Shown: positions 2,603 to 34,544 of the stretch, piece after piece
Layout: each line of letters starts with the position of its first letter
Numbering within the stretch: position 1 is the stretch's first letter
IMG/VR virus record: IMGVR_UViG_2778261576_000005
Coordinates: 1-37,529 of that record
Length of the DNA: 37,529 nt
Reading direction: 5' to 3' (one strand)
DNA from: a virus
Taxonomy: Duplodnaviria; Heunggongvirae; Uroviricota; Caudoviricetes
Notes under the pieces: generated by a model
What the model saw: the letters and a program-made list of their open reading frames with translations, nothing else
What the model was told of the DNA's origin: nothing
Databases searched by the model: none
Made by a program: the position numbers and the translations under genes

Positions 2603-3187
2603 TTACTCCGGATATTTAAAAATTACGTAGGTATGCGAAGGGCAGAGTTTGTTAAGCACACACTCGACAACGGTGTCGCCCCAGATACGCAGTGCGGAAT
2701 CACAGGGATCGCCACATGTCATCCAGGTGGTGTTGGTGGCAGCTGGCATGTTGACCTGCCAGTAATACCGCCATTCCGGCGCATTCACCGCGTCAGTACA
2801 GGCCGATGAGCAGGTGAAGGTGCTTTTGTCGTATCGCGTGATGGTGGCATCTGGTCTGCCCAGGGCAGCAAGCTGTGCAAGATAAAAATCCTCGTTGATG
2901 CCGCCCGCCAGGTTAACCTTCGCATCCAGCCGTTGCTGACGCTGGCGAAGGGTCTGCGTTCCCGCCGGAATACATTCATCCGGCAGACCGCACAGACGCT
3001 CCCAGCGGTTTATCAGTTCGGTGGTGGTGCGCGGATCCAGCTCCCGCATCAGGGCATCCGCACGCTGATGAACACGGGTTAATGATGGTGCTGCACCGGC
3101 AATCGCCGGATCGCTGGCTGACCACGCCGGACCGGGCGGCAACAGTGCTGACAACAGACGGATGTAATCATCGTTTGTCACGTCCAT
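2603..3187 (-). CDS. Tail protein, Mu gp48 / P2 gpI-like (YmfQ-like, DUF2313)
   Basis: 194 aa; position between baseplate J and fiber; resembles e14 YmfQ as recalled. Confidence 0.7.
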
Positions 3188-28839: not shown

Positions 28840-29987
28840 TTGCGCCCCCTTACCTCTGAAGAGTTCAGCGACGAATGAATAAGACGGGCAAGAAATGCCG
28901 CATCGTTAATTCGGTCATACAGACTTACAGCCAGCGGTGATTCAGCTTTTTCCAGCATGGGATAAAGCTGCTGCAACCAGACCTGATGAATTGATGAAAT
29001 GTAGGAACAGAGAACGCTGGCGTTATGTGCAACGTCGCTCGGTACAGCGGGCTTTGAAAGCTGTTTCTCCATCTGGTTAAAGGCATTGATATATGCCTCT
29101 TTGAACTGGGCAGCACGTTTACCCGTGAAACCCATAGCAAGAAACGCAAAACCGTCGCGTGTGATTTGGTAGCAAGGAAGTTTGCGACCTGTGCAATCAG
29201 TGTAATCACTCACCGAAAAATTGCGGGCAGTGAATGATGCTGAGCATTCAAGCGTGCGGATCTTTTTCAGTACATCGTCATGACGTTTGGAGAAGAAGTT
29301 GGCAACAGCCAGGGATGAAGTAACAGCCTGACCATCAACGATGGCAATTTCAGGTTGAGTGAGGGTTGGGATCGTAGCCATGATGGCAGCCTCTTTGGTG
29401 ATTTTTAATAACTCACCACCAAGGCTTTCCACGACCTTATTGGTGGTGAGACATACAGGGGTGGAAATACCGGTCACCAAAGAACCCGGCCCAACCGAAG
29501 TTGGCCCTGCACGCCCCACCATAATTTGGGCGTAATGCTGCTCATGACACAAAAAAACCGCAAGAGCGCGGTTGTGCGCTTTGGTGAATTCCGGGTTTCC
29601 ACGCCCGGCACCCGTTTTATAAGGTGCCTGAACAGTGTAACGTCCCGGAATGGCAGAATCAATGTGCTGGTGGTCCTTCACACTCAACAAAATCACGCCT
29701 GAATTTCCACAAAGGACTAAAGCACTCATGCGGGTAGTCTTTGCGAAGATAGATAACGCGCTGTGTTTCTGGCTCCCAACGAATAACATGAACATAAAGT
29801 CCTCTTCCGTCACGAAACCAGCGGTTAAGTTCCTGCACAACTCGCCCCCCACAGTCAGGTAAAGTTCTCTGTGGTTACTTACAGCCAGGTGATTTGGTAA
29901 TCTGCATTCATGCCGTAACAACAGGTGTGCAGCGACACTGACCACCAGCTGTTGCGACAAACGGTTATTTGCCGTTAAACTGTTCAT
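28836..29987 (-). CDS. Rha-family regulatory domain protein (Rha domain from internal ATG 29381; 202-codon open N-terminal extension)
   Basis: Rha motifs in the C-terminal half; ORF start at 29987 makes an ATGA overlap with the upstream gene stop. Confidence 0.55.
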   Translation of the reverse strand: MNSLTANNRLSQQLVVSVAAHLLLRHECRLPNHLAVSNHRELYLTVGGELCRNLTAGFVTEEDFMFMLFVGSQKHSALSIFAKTTRMSALVLCGNSGVILLSVKDHQHIDSAIPGRYTVQAPYKTGAGRGNPEFTKAHNRALAVFLCHEQHYAQIMVGRAGPTSVGPGSLVTGISTPVCLTTNKVVESLGGELLKITKEAAIMATIPTLTQPEIAIVDGQAVTSSLAVANFFSKRHDDVLKKIRTLECSASFTARNFSVSDYTDCTGRKLPCYQITRDGFAFLAMGFTGKRAAQFKEAYINAFNQMEKQLSKPAVPSDVAHNASVLCSYISSIHQVWLQQLYPMLEKAESPLAVSLYDRINDAAFLARLIHSSLNSSEVRGRK

Positions 29988-30890: not shown

Positions 30891-31542
30891 GATGAACATG
30901 AGTGATCGTATTCGCCAAAGGCGAAAAGAACTGAACCTGACACAACAAGCACTGGCTGATTTGACTGGTGTGAACCGTGTCACGGTTACTGGATGGGAAA
31001 AGGACGACTACCAACCAAATGGAGCCAACCTTCAAGCCCTAGCCAACGCACTTAAATGCGATCCTCTGTGGCTTGTTAGCGGAAAAGGCTCGCCTGAACC
31101 AAAGATAAATCTAAAACCTGAAATATTCGCAGTTAAAAAAGTCCCCCTCATCTCGTGGGTTCAGGCGGGTTCATGGACAATGACGGAGCCTGGTGTCAGG
31201 AAAGAAGATGCTGAAGAGTGGGTTTATACTACCGCCCTTGTATCAGAAATGGCATTTGCACTACGGGTCCGTGGTGATTCAATGACCAATCCCCTCGGCT
31301 CACCATCGATACCAGAAGGTTCTATCGTTATCGTAGAGCCAGATATTATTGATACAGAGTGTATTAACGGAAAAATCGTTGTTGCCCATATCAATGGTGG
31401 GCAAGAAGCGACACTCAAAAAATTTGTTGAGGACTGGCCGAACAGGTATCTCGTCCCACTAAATCCTAACTATAAAACTATTGAATGCGGTGAGAACTGC
31501 AGAATAGTTGGTCTTGTCAAACAAGTAATAATGGATTTTTGA
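30889..31542 (+). CDS. CI-type prophage repressor (HTH plus S24 LexA-like autopeptidase)
   Basis: N-terminal XRE-type HTH; C-terminal GDSM Ser nucleophile and conserved Lys. Confidence 0.85.
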   Translation: MMNMSDRIRQRRKELNLTQQALADLTGVNRVTVTGWEKDDYQPNGANLQALANALKCDPLWLVSGKGSPEPKINLKPEIFAVKKVPLISWVQAGSWTMTEPGVRKEDAEEWVYTTALVSEMAFALRVRGDSMTNPLGSPSIPEGSIVIVEPDIIDTECINGKIVVAHINGGQEATLKKFVEDWPNRYLVPLNPNYKTIECGENCRIVGLVKQVIMDF

Positions 31543-31566
31543 CACATCTTCCTCACTATCGCAAAA

Positions 31567-31588
31567 CCGGGGTATCCCCGGTTTTTTT
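31567..31588 (+). terminator. Intrinsic terminator after the CI gene
   Basis: CCGGGG-tat-CCCCGG followed by seven T. Confidence 0.7.
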
Positions 31589-31604
31589 ATGAGCCTATCT
31601 TTTT

Positions 31605-31658
31605 ATGTAGGATAACCAACATAAACTCTTGACACTCACATGTTGGATATCCTACATT
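31605..31658 (+). promoter_or_regulatory. OL/PL: two operator repeats bracketing TTGACA-N18-TACATT
   Basis: ATGTAGGATAACCAACAT at 31605-31622 and its near reverse complement at 31640-31657; -35 at 31629-31634. Confidence 0.6.
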
Positions 31659-31663
31659 TGTTT

Positions 31664-31752
31664 TTAGAGTTGTGGTGAATGCGCAGGCTGATGCGCGAAA
31701 GACATTGCAGCTATTGCGGAAAAGAGCTGTTCGGCGGGGCCATTAAACGCCC
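31664..31752 (+). repeat. 89-bp direct repeat, copy 1
   Basis: Identical to 32292-32380 except two mismatches; contains a GCGCA-N6-TGCGC hairpin and a GCTCTTTT-complement motif. Confidence 0.85.
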
Positions 31753-31856
31753 ATATCTGGAGGTTAAAGAACAAAATGAAAGTCCAGATTTTAAACAATA
31801 ACTGTGAAGTCGTTTGGGCGTAAAACATGACCGCGCGTAGACCAAGGGAGGAAAAA

Positions 31857-32033
31857 GTGGGAATAGTTAGAAATCAAGCAGATATATTGAAAATCAGCTC
31901 TGAATTGCTTGGAGTTTTGAAAAGTGAGCTCACCGCACATGGCATCGAGCCCACTGACGAAAATTTAAGTTGGGTTTTGTCGATTATTCAACAATCACTC
32001 AAGCCCAGCCTCAGCAAACTTTTTATCGAGTAG
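31857..32033 (+). CDS. Small hypothetical protein (58 aa from GTG 31857; alternative ATG 31827 gives an Arg-rich N-terminus)
   Basis: GGGAGG SD 5 nt before GTG; within the AT-rich cassette; 3' end overlaps the convergent ORF. Confidence 0.4.
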   Translation: MGIVRNQADILKISSELLGVLKSELTAHGIEPTDENLSWVLSIIQQSLKPSLSKLFIE

Positions 32034-32186
32034 TGCTTCGAACTTATCGTAAAGCTTGCTTATGTCGTCTATCGGGTTTTCTGACGTACTGTAATTTTTA
32101 TCTGATGTCATGGCAGCAGTCTGATATGCAGTGTGAGTCTTAACCGATAGTTGGAATAAATAAAGAATTTTTTCTTCTTTGGTCAT
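31995..32186 (-). CDS. Small hypothetical protein (63 aa)
   Basis: AAGGAAA SD 5 nt before ATG at 32186; MTKEEKILYLFQL...; within the AT-rich cassette. Confidence 0.45.
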   Translation of the reverse strand: MTKEEKILYLFQLSVKTHTAYQTAAMTSDKNYSTSENPIDDISKLYDKFEALLDKKFAEAGLE

Positions 32187-32291
32187 AACTATTTCCTTCT
32201 TGGCTATATGAAAACACCAAGATACCACCGAGCCTGAAGTGGTGAAAAGACAGGCACATAACAGCTAAGTATTTTCAACCAGAGAGAATCC

Positions 32292-32380
32292 TTAGCGTTG
32301 TGGTGAATGCGCAGGCTGATGCGCGAAAGACATTGCAGCTATTGCGGAAAAGAGCTGTTCGGCGGGGCAATTAAACGCCC
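32292..32380 (+). repeat. 89-bp direct repeat, copy 2
   Basis: See copy 1; the copies flank a roughly 540-bp AT-rich segment. Confidence 0.85.
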
Positions 32381-32627
32381 GTGAGAGTCTGAAATAACCG
32401 CAAGCCGGAGATCAGCACCGGTCACCACAACAGCCACTGCTTTGGCGGTACCAGTTTGTACACTTGCTTCCGGCTGGTACCGCTCTTTTTACAAAACAGA
32501 GAAGAGCATCACCGGACGACGGGCTCATAACCCAATCCATCCGGGCGTCTGCCACCGCAGGTGTTCTTCTCTGTTTTGTGGAGAAACCAACCGACCTTGC
32601 AGGGTCGATATGATGAGGAGCAGCAAA

Positions 32628-32990
32628 ATGGCTAGCGAACGCAGTACTGATGTGCAGGCATTTATCGGGGAGCTGGACGGCGGCGTATTTGAAACCAAAA
32701 TCGGCGCAGTTCTCAGTGAAGTCGCTTCCGGTGTGATGAACACGAAAACCAAAGGTAAGGTCTCGCTCAACCTGGAAATCGAACCGTTTGATGAGAACCG
32801 TGTGAAAATAAAACACAAACTCTCATATGTTCGCCCGACTAACCGCGGGAAAATTTCCGAAGAAGACACCACCGAAACGCCGATGTATGTCAATCGCGGT
32901 GGTCGCCTGACTATTCTGCAGGAAGACCAGGGACAATTACTGACTCTTGCCGGTGAGCCTGACGGAAAACTCCGCGCAGCAGGTCATTAA
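32628..32990 (+). CDS. YfdP-like early protein (120 aa)
   Basis: AGGAG SD 7 nt before ATG 32628; size and position match the KplE1 yfdP-yfdQ-yfdR order as recalled. Confidence 0.5.
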   Translation: MASERSTDVQAFIGELDGGVFETKIGAVLSEVASGVMNTKTKGKVSLNLEIEPFDENRVKIKHKLSYVRPTNRGKISEEDTTETPMYVNRGGRLTILQEDQGQLLTLAGEPDGKLRAAGH

Positions 32991-33055: not shown

Positions 33056-33880
33056 ATGTCTCAGAACTTAGACGCAACCGCAATTAATCAAATTCATGCC
33101 CTTATTTCTGCTCAGGGTGTTAATGAAATTATCAGTAAGATTGGTGCCGATGCTGTGGCATTGCCTGAGAATTTCCGCATTCATGATCTGGAAAAATTTA
33201 ATTTAAATCGCTTCCGTTTCCGTGGTGCACTTTCCACTGCCAGCATCGATGATTTTACCCGTTATTCTAAAGATCTTGCAGATGAAGGCACCCGCTGCTT
33301 TATCGACGCCGATAATATGCGTGCCGTCAGTGTACTTAACCTGGGTACTATCGATGAACCAGGTCACGCAGATAACACCGCCACTCTCAAACTGAAAAAG
33401 ACAGCACCGTTCTCTGCCCTGTTGTCTGTTAACGGCGAGCGTAACTCCCAGAAGTCACTGGCAGAATGGATTGAAGACTGGGCCGACTACCTTGTGGGCT
33501 TTGATGCTAATGGTGACGCCATTCAGGCAACCAAAGCGGCTGCGGCGATCCGTAAAATCACAATTGAAGCGAACCAGACAGCTGATTTTGAAGATAATGA
33601 CTTCAGCGGCAAACGCTCCCTGATGGAGTCAGTCGAAGCGAAGACCAAAGACATTATGCCAGTGGCATTTGAATTTAAATGCGTTCCGTTTGAAGGCCTG
33701 AAAGAACGTCCGTTTAAATTACGCCTCAGCATTATCACTGGCGATCGTCCTGTACTGGTTCTGCGCATTATTCAGCTGGAAGCGGTGCAGGAAGAAATGG
33801 CTAACGAATTTCGTGATCTGCTTGTTGAGAAATTCAAAGACAGCAAAGTCGAAACCTTTATTGGTACTTTCACCGCCTGA
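33056..33880 (+). CDS. YfdQ-like protein (DUF2303-type, 274 aa)
   Basis: Size and position; acidic protein. Confidence 0.55.
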
Positions 33881-34007
33881 TTTCATTACTGCAAATGCCC
33901 CTGCGGGGGCATTTATGGAAACGTAATTAACTCAATAATCACCGGATGGTGAGAGCTTCCTTTTACCAGAATTCAGCGCGGTGCAGCGCATATACGTGGA
34001 GAACAAA

Positions 34008-34544
34008 ATGTCATTTATTAAAACTTTTTCCGGGAAGCATTTTTATTATGACAAGATAAATAAAGACGACATCGTGATTAACGATATCGCAGTTTCCCTC
34101 TCAAATATCTGTCGCTTTGCAGGGCATCTTTCACACTTCTACAGCGTCGCCCAACATGCGGTGCTTTGCAGCCAGCTGGTACCGCAGGAGTTTGCTTTCG
34201 AAGCGTTAATGCATGATGCAACAGAAGCATATTGCCAGGACATCCCCGCGCCACTGAAACGACCTCTTCCTGACTATAAACGGATGGAAGAAAAAATAGA
34301 CGCCGTAATCCGTAAGAAATACGGGTTACCCCCGGTTATGAGTACGCCCGTGAAATATGCCGATCTAATCATGCTGGCAACCGAACGCCGTGATCTCGGG
34401 CTTGATGATGGCTCTTTCTGGCCTGTACTGGAAGGCATCCCGGCAACAGAGATGTTCAACGTGATTCCACTGGCACCGGGCCATGCCTACGGGATGTTTA
34501 TGGAACGCTTCAACGAGTTATCGGAATTACGCAAATGTGCATAA
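34008..34544 (+). CDS. HD-domain phosphohydrolase, YfdR-like 5'-deoxynucleotidase
   Basis: GGAG SD 6 nt before ATG 34008 (178 aa); H...HD...D metal-binding motif (LMHDATEAY). Confidence 0.7.
   Translation: MSFIKTFSGKHFYYDKINKDDIVINDIAVSLSNICRFAGHLSHFYSVAQHAVLCSQLVPQEFAFEALMHDATEAYCQDIPAPLKRPLPDYKRMEEKIDAVIRKKYGLPPVMSTPVKYADLIMLATERRDLGLDDGSFWPVLEGIPATEMFNVIPLAPGHAYGMFMERFNELSELRKCA

Follow-up and report, generated by a model that had tools for sequence, protein, structure and literature searches.

A mosaic accessory module with an invariant 32-nt block in the PL-proximal slot of an SfV/e14-like lambdoid prophage

Introduction

What does a pair of near-identical direct repeats signify when it flanks a small, AT-rich stretch of DNA immediately downstream of the leftward promoter (PL) of a temperate phage? 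The question is raised by the IMG/VR virus record IMGVR_UViG_2778261576_000005 (Caudoviricetes), whose 37,529 nucleotides (nt) are referred to below as the window. The window is a lambdoid prophage of the SfV/e14/CPS-53-like kind. An earlier reading made from the sequence, here called the original prediction, had singled out positions 31664-32380 as a cassette bounded by two 89-bp repeats, carrying two small convergent genes and occupying the slot in which exclusion genes of the rexAB/sieB type are kept. The accessory cassette is genuine, and its two small genes, here termed A+ and A-, are conserved. The region is probably best understood as a mosaic accessory module in a variable slot next to PL; an invariant 32-nt block within it is most likely the promoter of A-, and the 89-bp duplication is a by-product of homologous exchange among mosaic phages, not the mark of a mobile element. 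The word 'probably' applies to this explanation as a whole.

Anatomy of the module

The module (cassette A) can be thought of as having five parts: a conserved left end, the gene A+ that would be read by PL, the convergent gene A-, a covarying hairpin and the invariant block (coordinates in Table 1). Its most conspicuous feature, the repeat pair, is the only 89-nt direct-repeat family returned by the repeat finder. The copies are 98% identical with 2 mismatches, lie 628 nt apart, and cannot owe their likeness to chance. The 539 bp between them (31753-32291) have a G+C content of 39.3%; that of the whole window is 51.3% and that of the repeats 53.9%. The repeat pair and its AT-rich interior had been correctly described beforehand, as had the 58-aa plus-strand and 63-aa minus-strand open reading frames (ORFs) with their Shine-Dalgarno sequences and 39-bp overlap of 3' ends (ORF list and sequence), and the position just downstream of the left operators (OL) and PL, which the promoter scan and the operator copies bear out.

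Not every element of the original prediction holds. The repeats are not the limits of the module, which has conserved ends of its own, and the two copies differ in origin. Nor is this the rexAB slot: rexAB lies between cI and OL, on the opposite side of OL/PL, and the cassette is therefore not in the rexAB position. It is located inside the PL transcript, at the position of N or of the leader.

The module ends, shared with at least one other cassette, are recognised by comparison with cassette B, which consists of SfV orf33 and an unannotated 81-aa minus-strand gene. Cassettes A and B share a left end (termed cas5). In cassette A, this end includes an inverted repeat of 7 bp (ATCTGGA/TCCAGAT) and a Shine-Dalgarno sequence, together with an ORF of 15 codons that is either a relic or an upstream ORF. 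They also share a right end of about 90 nt, finishing with TTAGCGTTGTGGTGAATGCG. Both ends recur within a single locus, L004, where cas5 forms an 80-nt repeat of 89% identity between two tandem cassettes and the right end a 91-nt repeat. Strain 1332KP and L281 each carry A and B in tandem, which shows that arrays can be accommodated in the slot. In L004 (2001-3283), cassette A is followed by cassette B with a 91-nt leader fragment between them, and the same order is seen in L281.

Two conserved, co-inherited genes

The ORF list gives A+ as a 68-aa frame from the ATG at 31827; its homologues begin at the equivalent of the GTG at 31857, which yields the 58-aa protein. A+ is preceded by AGGGAGGAAAAAGTG and A-, on the minus strand, by AAGAAGGAAATAGTTATG as Shine-Dalgarno sequences, and the two coding regions overlap by 39 nt (31995-32033). 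Eleven homologues of A+ were found down to 64% identity, mostly 58-59 aa long and with 31 invariant columns. Homologues of A- likewise extend down to 64% identity, with many invariant positions (Atlantibacter, Klebsiella). In prophages of Atlantibacter, Klebsiella and Kluyvera, the homologous pairs are again convergent and overlapping, and lie between the repressor and yfdP or rdgC. The convergent partner is an A+ homologue for 28 of the 31 A- homologues, and the pairing persists at about 45-65% identity. In Klebsiella, the gene that partners A- is a diverged homologue of A+, and the two are thus inherited together; judged by this conservation, A+ and A- are real genes, co-inherited from Escherichia to Klebsiella.

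Both proteins are predicted to form two-helix hairpins, with predicted local distance difference test (pLDDT) scores of 73 and 68; the helices in the A+ model span residues 17-37 and 44-66. A Foldseek comparison of both structures with the PDB gave no meaningful match. Known toxin-antitoxin and anti-phage defence families were considered for the pair and set aside, neither protein having a Pfam, PADLOC, NCBIfam or structural match.

A- could be a growth-inhibiting effector of exclusion or abortive infection in the lysogen, and A+ an early antidote, made from PL, that spares the prophage during induction; the two would then be toxin-antitoxin-like, or a self-immunity pair. Co-inheritance across genera (the 28 of 31 partnerships, maintained even at low identity) fits such a relationship, the convergent overlap would provide built-in reciprocal control, and two small helical hairpins, if modelled correctly, could pack together. 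The absence of A+ and A- from the Pfam, NCBIfam and PADLOC families argues against it, as does the fact that A- has no evident membrane or nuclease features. Moreover, the same YmfJ-like N-terminus of the plus-strand gene occurs with different minus-strand genes in other modules, which speaks against obligate cognate pairs in general. A toxin-antitoxin-like pair is a candidate reading, but not a likely one.

An invariant block ahead of many different genes

Upstream of A-, the block TACCACCGAGCCTGANGTGGTNAAAAGACAGG stays identical across genera, while the coding sequence behind it drops to 70-82% identity. Scanning IMG/VR for the exact pattern, and adding the loci collected before, gave at least 149 occurrences. 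The ORFs directly behind the block fall into at least 24 similarity clusters, of which 23 encode proteins of 55-163 aa; the remaining one consists of one ORF of 35 aa, possibly spurious. Families of minus-strand genes that have the block and hairpin in front of them number at least 23; they are unrelated to each other and include ymfI of the K-12 prophage e14, and nearly all of these families have a convergent plus-strand ORF that overlaps the 3' end of the cargo gene. In those cases whose flanks are long enough to tell, the end of an S24 repressor lies a median of 768 nt upstream.

The distribution is wide. The exact block is present in 21 species-representative genomes; the genera include Escherichia, Salmonella, Klebsiella, Enterobacter, Kluyvera, Atlantibacter, Shimwellia, Superficieibacter, Pantoea, Hafnia and Edwardsiella. 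Among 5426 complete E. coli genomes, at least 854 contain it. Three records, titled Chryseobacterium sp. (L261), Geobacteraceae metagenome-assembled genome (L267) and Vagococcus sp. (L269), carry the exact block within flanks of enterobacterial type; contaminated or mis-binned contigs are the likely reason for these labels. The cargo proteins tested are all of unknown function, and their only NCBIfam matches are the uncharacterised phage families ECs1072, ECs_2282 and YmfI. A text search of 8 million papers found none that spells out the block's sequence.

The hairpin occupies the interval from the block to the Shine-Dalgarno sequence of A-. Since its arm register varies by class, alignment-based counting of pairs was dropped in favour of scoring the stem in each sequence separately, with shuffled sequences and arm swaps as controls. 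A hairpin of at least six Watson-Crick pairs anchored at the block was found in 42 of 52 distinct sequences; shuffling gave a mean of 2.4 (maximum 7), and exchange of arms between classes 6.9. There are 18 distinct arm sequences with compensatory changes, among them the pairs TCTTGG/CCAAGA, TACTGG/CCAGTA, TGCTGG/CCAGCA and TCCTTTTA/TAAAAGGA. The block is thus accompanied by a hairpin whose sequence changes while its pairing is kept.

The corresponding hairpin in SfV has been annotated differently: in its record (U82619.2), the 'putative rho-independent terminator' at 2929-2961 is the Shine-Dalgarno hairpin of the unannotated 81-aa gene. This gene (2696-2941, minus strand; phrog_3311) converges on orf33, with an overlap of 83 nt.

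The block as a putative promoter, and its consequences

On the minus strand, the block and its border contain a -35 element TTTTCA (32248-32243), an 18-nt spacer, and TGg followed by TATCTT, the -10 hexamer lying at 32224-32219. Read in this manner, the block probably spans about -43 to -11 of an extended -10 promoter (TTTTCA-18-TGgTATNNT) with a predicted start near 32212. All 21 species-level loci, even one that lacks the hairpin, retain the TG, the TA and the last T. Readings of the block and loop as sites for sigma-54, sigma-E, CRP or LexA were rejected, none being conserved across families when compared by eye.

Such a promoter would place A- under two regimes. In the lysogen, PL would be repressed, and only A- would be made, from its own promoter, as a prophage cargo gene; a role in exclusion or defence is plausible. 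Upon induction, transcription from PL would have to cross A- head-on to reach yfdP. It is for this reason that firing of PL is expected to interfere with A- and at the same time to supply its antisense: the PL transcript would yield A+ together with a full antisense RNA of A-, and expression of the pair would switch. The switch would be of the excludon type, combining transcriptional interference and antisense pairing.

This relatively simple picture is complicated by a number of observations that weigh against it. Only 8 of the 12 consensus positions, in addition to the TG, are matched by the putative promoter, which went uncalled in the promoter scan. A plain promoter leaves unexplained why the spacer, with its two internal complementarities, is invariant, and also why the hairpin should exist, as its 5' arm would sit upstream of the predicted start. 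No usable published transcription start data were found for any member (ymfI or the Sakai homologues), and the scan predicted no terminator for A+ or A- inside the cassette. In K-12, the ymfI signal does not fall in the late SOS response but increases about fourfold, in a library of uncertain strandedness (PMC11002266). Finally, searches of Pfam, NCBIfam and PADLOC offered no functional hint for either protein, and the PHROG families matched are all of unknown function.

With regard to the hairpin, there are two ways out. It could act in the PL transcript and present there a loop with complementarity to the cargo mRNA's 5' end, in the manner of IS10 RNA-OUT. Alternatively, transcription could start further upstream, and the element would then be a 5' untranslated region (5'-UTR) that sequesters the Shine-Dalgarno sequence.

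The second possibility amounts to a riboregulator of the minus-strand mRNA: a pseudoknot-like sensor followed by a hairpin that masks the ribosome-binding site and would govern translation of any cargo gene behind it, with the start upstream of the block. Its attraction lies in the two 5-bp complementarities of the block, ACCAC/GTGGT and GCCTG/CAGGC, which are interleaved in the geometry of an H-type pseudoknot. The 3' arm of the hairpin (minus strand) abuts or holds the Shine-Dalgarno sequence in every class (CCAAGA-AGGAA, UAAAAGGA, GAAGGA), and the GCCUG/CAGGC stem and the hairpin are both predicted in folds of the minus strand and not in those of the plus strand. Riboswitches usually combine an invariant sensor with a covarying expression platform; by analogy, the invariant block and covarying hairpin would match this layout. 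However, the DNA upstream of the block is wholly different between families and contains neither a shared nor a canonical promoter. The folding energies resemble those of shuffled sequence (z from -1.5 to +0.6), with a slight, non-significant lean to the minus strand, and Rfam has no match on either strand. Since no variant at the central base of either complementarity occurs in 2.9 million viral contigs, the pseudoknot is beyond comparative test. The TATNNT after the TG is kept even in the sole locus without a hairpin. A 5'-UTR riboregulator is regarded as unlikely, and a promoter within the block as the preferred interpretation.

Block and hairpin together might constitute a portable device for expression and shut-off, marking a hypervariable cargo slot beside PL in lambdoid prophages across the Enterobacterales, e14 included: small cargo genes would be on in the lysogen and silenced when PL fires, and the dozens of uncharacterised cargo families, with A- as one of them, and their PL-driven partners would form a reservoir of exclusion or defence functions and of early counter-functions. 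This broader proposal is tentative, and the chances are somewhat against it.

The repeat is the start of the PL leader RNA

The -10 element of PL, which sits between the two operator copies, ends at 31658. The transcript is thus expected to start at about 31664, and the first repeat copy begins at approximately +1. Both the identity of the repeat and the difference between its copies follow from comparison with relatives: the repeat represents the opening 89 nt of a PL leader that is conserved and highly structured, and is not the end of a mobile element. It corresponds to the 5' two-thirds of the first leader domain. Copy 2 continues into an intact leader, as in about 100 loci with a single copy. 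Copy 1 lacks the 3' partner of the helix that closes this domain, and has a single-base variant, GGCCATT, in common with L002.

The leader as a whole (32292-32627, roughly 335 nt; 349 nt in the fold) has z = -5.2. Two alleles can be distinguished. The type 1 leader is that of the window; the type 2 leader, found in SfV, e14 and L002, has an unrelated interior of the same size but retains the closing helix and the first 20 nt, and folds with z = -6.5. The structured leader could be an RNA-based device for antitermination or attenuation. No N-like gene was noticed in the PL operon, although no systematic search for one was made. Rfam has no match for the leader, the repeat or the block on either strand, at the gathering threshold over the whole window and at E <= 5 over 31500-32700; the sole match in the latter interval is a chance hit of Termite-leu on the cI terminator.

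The suggestion that the repeat might be either an RNA element or a recombination boundary turns out to be right on both counts, as it is part of the structured PL leader and also a boundary of exchange (see the next section). The 5-bp hairpin (GCGCA GGCTGA TGCGC) and the complement of a boxA-like motif (AAAAGAGC) that had been noticed in it are both there, but the boxA-like reading, GCTCTTTT, belongs to the strand that PL does not transcribe. An interpretation as a nut site was rejected for this reason, and because neither window copy has a boxA upstream of the hairpin: the sequences at this position are TTTTTAGAG in copy 1 and TCCTTAGCG in copy 2. Some other immunity types have GCTCTCA or GCTCTTA there.

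As with putL of phage HK022, the repeat stands at the very start of the PL transcript, within a structured RNA (PMC9378689), and it may be an RNA of the put type. Both putL and the nut sites of lambda are PL-proximal antitermination elements; put RNA has about 70 nt with two stem-loops and acts in cis on RNA polymerase. The leader domain here has about 135 nt and another architecture. A comparison by eye revealed no sequence similarity between HK022 putL and the repeat or leader.

The repeat also contains an ORF (MRRLMRERHCSYCGK..). Its CSYCGK motif suggested a decayed gene for a ClpX-type zinc finger; the candidate was discarded, as it has one CxxC only and no match to PF06689. The 67-aa ClpX C4-type zinc-finger protein of L003, discussed below, matches PF06689 at 6e-11. 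Among 5.8 billion proteins there is no longer protein with the N-terminus of the repeat ORF; only a 40-aa fusion ORF was found.

Junctions and the origin of the duplication

How, then, did a second copy of the leader's first 89 nt come to lie to the left of the cassette? An early census comprised 123 loci, 119 of which had been obtained via an exact 40-mer from the repeat. In 100 of the 123, a single repeat copy is followed by about 245 nt of conserved leader and then by yfdP, with no cassette. In 28 (phage Lys8385Vzw and 27 others), PL of the window's own immunity type stands directly before the single repeat and leader. These are related prophages in which the cassette is absent and one repeat copy remains, as the original prediction had envisaged. 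Across all 279 loci finally collected, two copies occur in the window only, and no relative has two copies without an insert.

Each junction of the window can be found on its own elsewhere. The left one, from repeat to module left end (..AAACGCCCGT|ATCTGGAGG), occurs separately in L002, L004, L011 and L282, and the right one, which links the module's right end to the repeat, in L003, L086 and further loci. Left junctions are of two kinds, each seen with either cassette: the module is preceded by a gene for a 67-aa ClpX-type zinc finger or by the opening 91 nt of the type 1 leader. On the right, the junctions open into type 1, type 2 or other leaders.

The zinc-finger gene is the first gene after PL in many relatives, including L003 and L004 (1810-2013 in both), and its stop codon falls within the conserved left end of the cassette. 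Its product might be a free mimic of the ClpX N-domain, made early in infection.

The closest relative of the window in this region is an IMG/VR contig, L282, with 99.7% identity from cI through the cassette to position 32311. Beyond this point L282 has the type 2 form of the leader domain, and its sequence meets that of the window again at 32445; the type 1 domain at this place is the sole difference, and it starts with the same 89 nt as the truncated remnant to the left of the cassette. Homology is available on both sides of the swapped segment, in the leader's first 20 nt and in its part from 32446 on, so that simple homologous exchange suffices. The left copy would then be an old, truncated remnant that travels fused to the module left end, and the right copy the 5' end of an intact type 1 leader, brought in by exchange in place of an L282-like type 2 leader. 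As the junctions occur separately and empty relatives keep one copy, the duplication is taken to be a by-product of homologous exchange between mosaic phages, the conclusion included in the overall assessment given in the Introduction. Once formed, the 89-bp repeats would allow RecA or a phage recombinase to delete the module, which would produce the common form with a single copy and no cassette.

One objection is that the two-copy arrangement might not exist in nature, being instead an assembly artefact in which two related prophages resident in the same genome were joined through their shared cassette. None of 5426 complete E. coli genomes, 50,697 phage records and the other loci fetched has exactly this arrangement, which counts against the exchange account too, and matching E. 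coli genomes contain up to five related copies of the region. Yet each repeat copy bears single-base variants of its own, consistent with distinct lineages, the flanks are collinear with real relatives (L282 on the left, many others on the right), and one natural exchange between shared sequences explains the arrangement equally well. A chimeric assembly is improbable.

That the cassette is a mobile element, with the repeats as its target duplication or as paired site-specific recombination sites (in the manner of an integron cassette or miniature transposon), is scarcely credible: the AT-rich, foreign-looking DNA between direct repeats and the tandem cassettes with a repeat between them in L004 and L281 would suit it, but 89 bp is too long (to our knowledge it far exceeds any transposon target duplication), the only ORFs, of 58 and 63 aa, encode no recombinase or transposase, both junctions occur independently of each other (the same cassette lies behind the ClpX-type zinc-finger gene without a left repeat), repeats on both sides are seen in 1 of 279 loci, and shared homologous flanks account for every arrangement observed. 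A transposon, insertion sequence or integron cassette was also set aside on the grounds that the repeat finder detected no terminal inverted repeats, the ORFs have no family matches and the copies have separate histories. The data examined show no sign of transposition or site-specific insertion.

Comparison with known systems

The closest architectural relative of the cassette is the ymfJ/ymfI region of prophage e14 in E. coli K-12. The order is the same, with the repressor gene ymfK, PL, ymfJ converging on ymfI, the leader, ymfH, xis and int. The two regions have an identical 32-nt block, a hairpin of one class (TGCTGG/CCAGCA in e14) and the right-hand spacer in common. The coding 3' ends of ymfJ and ymfI overlap by 63 nt, compared with 39 nt for A+ and A-. 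In e14, the spacer is followed by a type 2 leader, and, unlike in the window, no leader fragment is duplicated. The proteins themselves are unrelated to A- and A+; YmfI has 113 aa and belongs to the NCBIfam family YmfI_phage. The pair ymfI-ymfJ has been listed as a convergent excludon, based on RNA sequencing (RNA-seq) data processed with ExcludonFinder (PMC12288877). In addition, ymfJ, which is under a CI-like repressor, shows late SOS induction, with a log2 fold change of up to 4.8 (PMC11002266).

Excludons are defined by convergent, overlapping transcription units (PMC12288877) and mutually exclusive expression. The genes A+ and A- resemble them in their convergent orientation and 39-nt 3' coding overlap, a layout that recurs in nearly all block-associated families, and one transcript would be expected to silence the other through polymerase collision and cleavage by RNase III. 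Antisense control by overlapping transcription is also familiar from oop/cII of phage lambda and from RNA-OUT/RNA-IN of IS10. Were the A- mRNA to begin within the hairpin loop, a complementary loop would be displayed on a stem by the PL transcript, as RNA-OUT displays one to the 5' end of RNA-IN. The difference from both the excludons and IS10 is that the 'antisense RNA' here would be a long operon transcript which also encodes the partner protein.

Morons, in the concept of Hendrix and colleagues, are extra pieces of DNA consisting of one gene with its own promoter and terminator. The cassette is moron-like in being present or absent between collinear relatives (present in the window and L282, absent from Lys8385Vzw and the 27 other loci) and in its low G+C content relative to its surroundings (39.3% vs 51.3%); it may also have a promoter of its own and be expressed from the prophage. 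It differs in comprising a convergent pair without a predicted terminator and in combining an invariant promoter-like element with cargo that is swapped among at least 23 families. As to a promoter and terminator, the cassette has the uncalled TTTTCA-18-TGgTATNNT motif upstream of A- and no terminator-like site. Expression of ECs1072, a gene connected with the cargo only as the namesake of a matched NCBIfam family, was detectable in uninduced cultures of O157 Sakai (PMC2241611).

A further parallel is found in T4-type phages. There, according to what has reportedly been described by Arbiol, Comeau and Krisch, promoter-early stem-loop (PeSL) cassettes combine a promoter and a stem-loop that flank small, hypervariable novel ORFs. 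In both cases, a conserved sequence with promoter-like and stem-loop elements lies beside swappable small ORFs and offers homology for shuffling, with tandems and swaps as the outcome. The phage group and the sequence are different, and here a single element occupies a fixed slot by PL, facing against the operon.

Feature coordinates and neighbouring genes

Table 1. Features of the PL-proximal region and its surroundings (window coordinates)
Feature	Position	Strand	Remarks
cI-type repressor, 217 aa	30889-31542	+	S24 motif GDSM; ORF list; LexA-family/cI annotation in relatives with identical immunity region
Terminator hairpin after cI	~31563-31588		
OL operators	31605-31623, 31640-31658		repeat family D2, inverted repeat I3
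PL	-35 TTGACA 31629-31634; -10 TACATT 31653-31658	+	18-nt spacer; promoter scan, 10/12 matches
Repeat copy 1	31664-31752	+	orphaned piece (first 89-91 nt) of the type 1 leader, fused to module left end
Module left end (cas5)	31755-31834	+	begins ATCTGGAGGTTAAAG..; ~80 nt; common to cassettes A and B
15-codon ORF MKVQILNNNCEVVWA	31776-31823	+	strong Shine-Dalgarno sequence; N-terminus of cassette-B plus gene; ends 3 nt before an in-frame-independent ATG
A+, 58 aa	31857-32033	+	GTG start; would be read by PL; phrog_15476 match 7e-50
A-, 63 aa	31995-32186	-	convergent with A+; phrog_2605 match 1.4e-33; annotated as hypothetical protein SfII_36 in phage SfII
Covarying hairpin	32198-32222		TCTTGG, 13-nt loop, CCAAGA; between A- Shine-Dalgarno sequence and block
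Invariant 32-nt block TACCACCGAGCCTGAAGTGGTGAAAAGACAGG	32223-32254	-	single exact match in the window, none expected by chance
Right-hand spacer CACATAACAGCTAAGTATTTTCAACCAGAGAGAATCC	32255-32291		conserved in cassettes A, B and K-12 e14
Repeat copy 2	32292-32380	+	first 89 nt of intact type 1 leader
Leader domain 1, multi-hairpin	32297-32431	+	closing helix GUUGUGGUG (32297-32305) / CACCACAAC (32423-32431); minimum free energy and centroid folds
Terminator-like hairpin	32446-32490	+	CGGTACCAG..CTGGTACCG, then CTCTTTTT; fold, sequence
Hairpin with 25-nt arms	32491-32579	+	arms 32491-32515 / 32555-32579; inverted repeat I2, fold
yfdP	32628-32990	+	first conserved early-left gene; annotation in relatives; phrog_204 match 1e-49
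yfdQ	33056-33880	+	annotation in relatives
yfdR	33981-34544	+	annotation in relatives

Two side observations can be added. Further to the left, Rfam matches at gathering level were obtained on the minus strand for the C4 antisense RNA (29439-29526, 81 bits) and the Hfq-binding RNA isrK (29551-29627, 68 bits). The two are adjacent and downstream of a cII-like/YmfL gene, and represent an antisense control module of the P1/P7 or Gifsy type inside the early-right operon. Secondly, 242 of the 1428 places in complete E. coli genomes that match window positions 31600-31900 are on plasmids, which suggests phage-plasmids or plasmid-borne prophage fragments with this PL region.

Significance

The repeat-bounded cassette is in itself ordinary phage mosaicism, and it shows cleanly how accessory DNA is created and deleted when homologous exchange takes place at conserved ends of modules. 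The conserved element and its cargo slot, by contrast, appear to be undescribed: the same 32-nt block is found from Escherichia to Hafnia, Edwardsiella and Pantoea, each time ahead of differing small genes that face into PL. If the element does control a slot for prophage cargo, it would provide a sequence handle for harvesting candidate exclusion and defence genes together with their early partners, and ymfI/ymfJ of K-12 would be a tractable model for the way in which induction flips the expression of a convergent pair.

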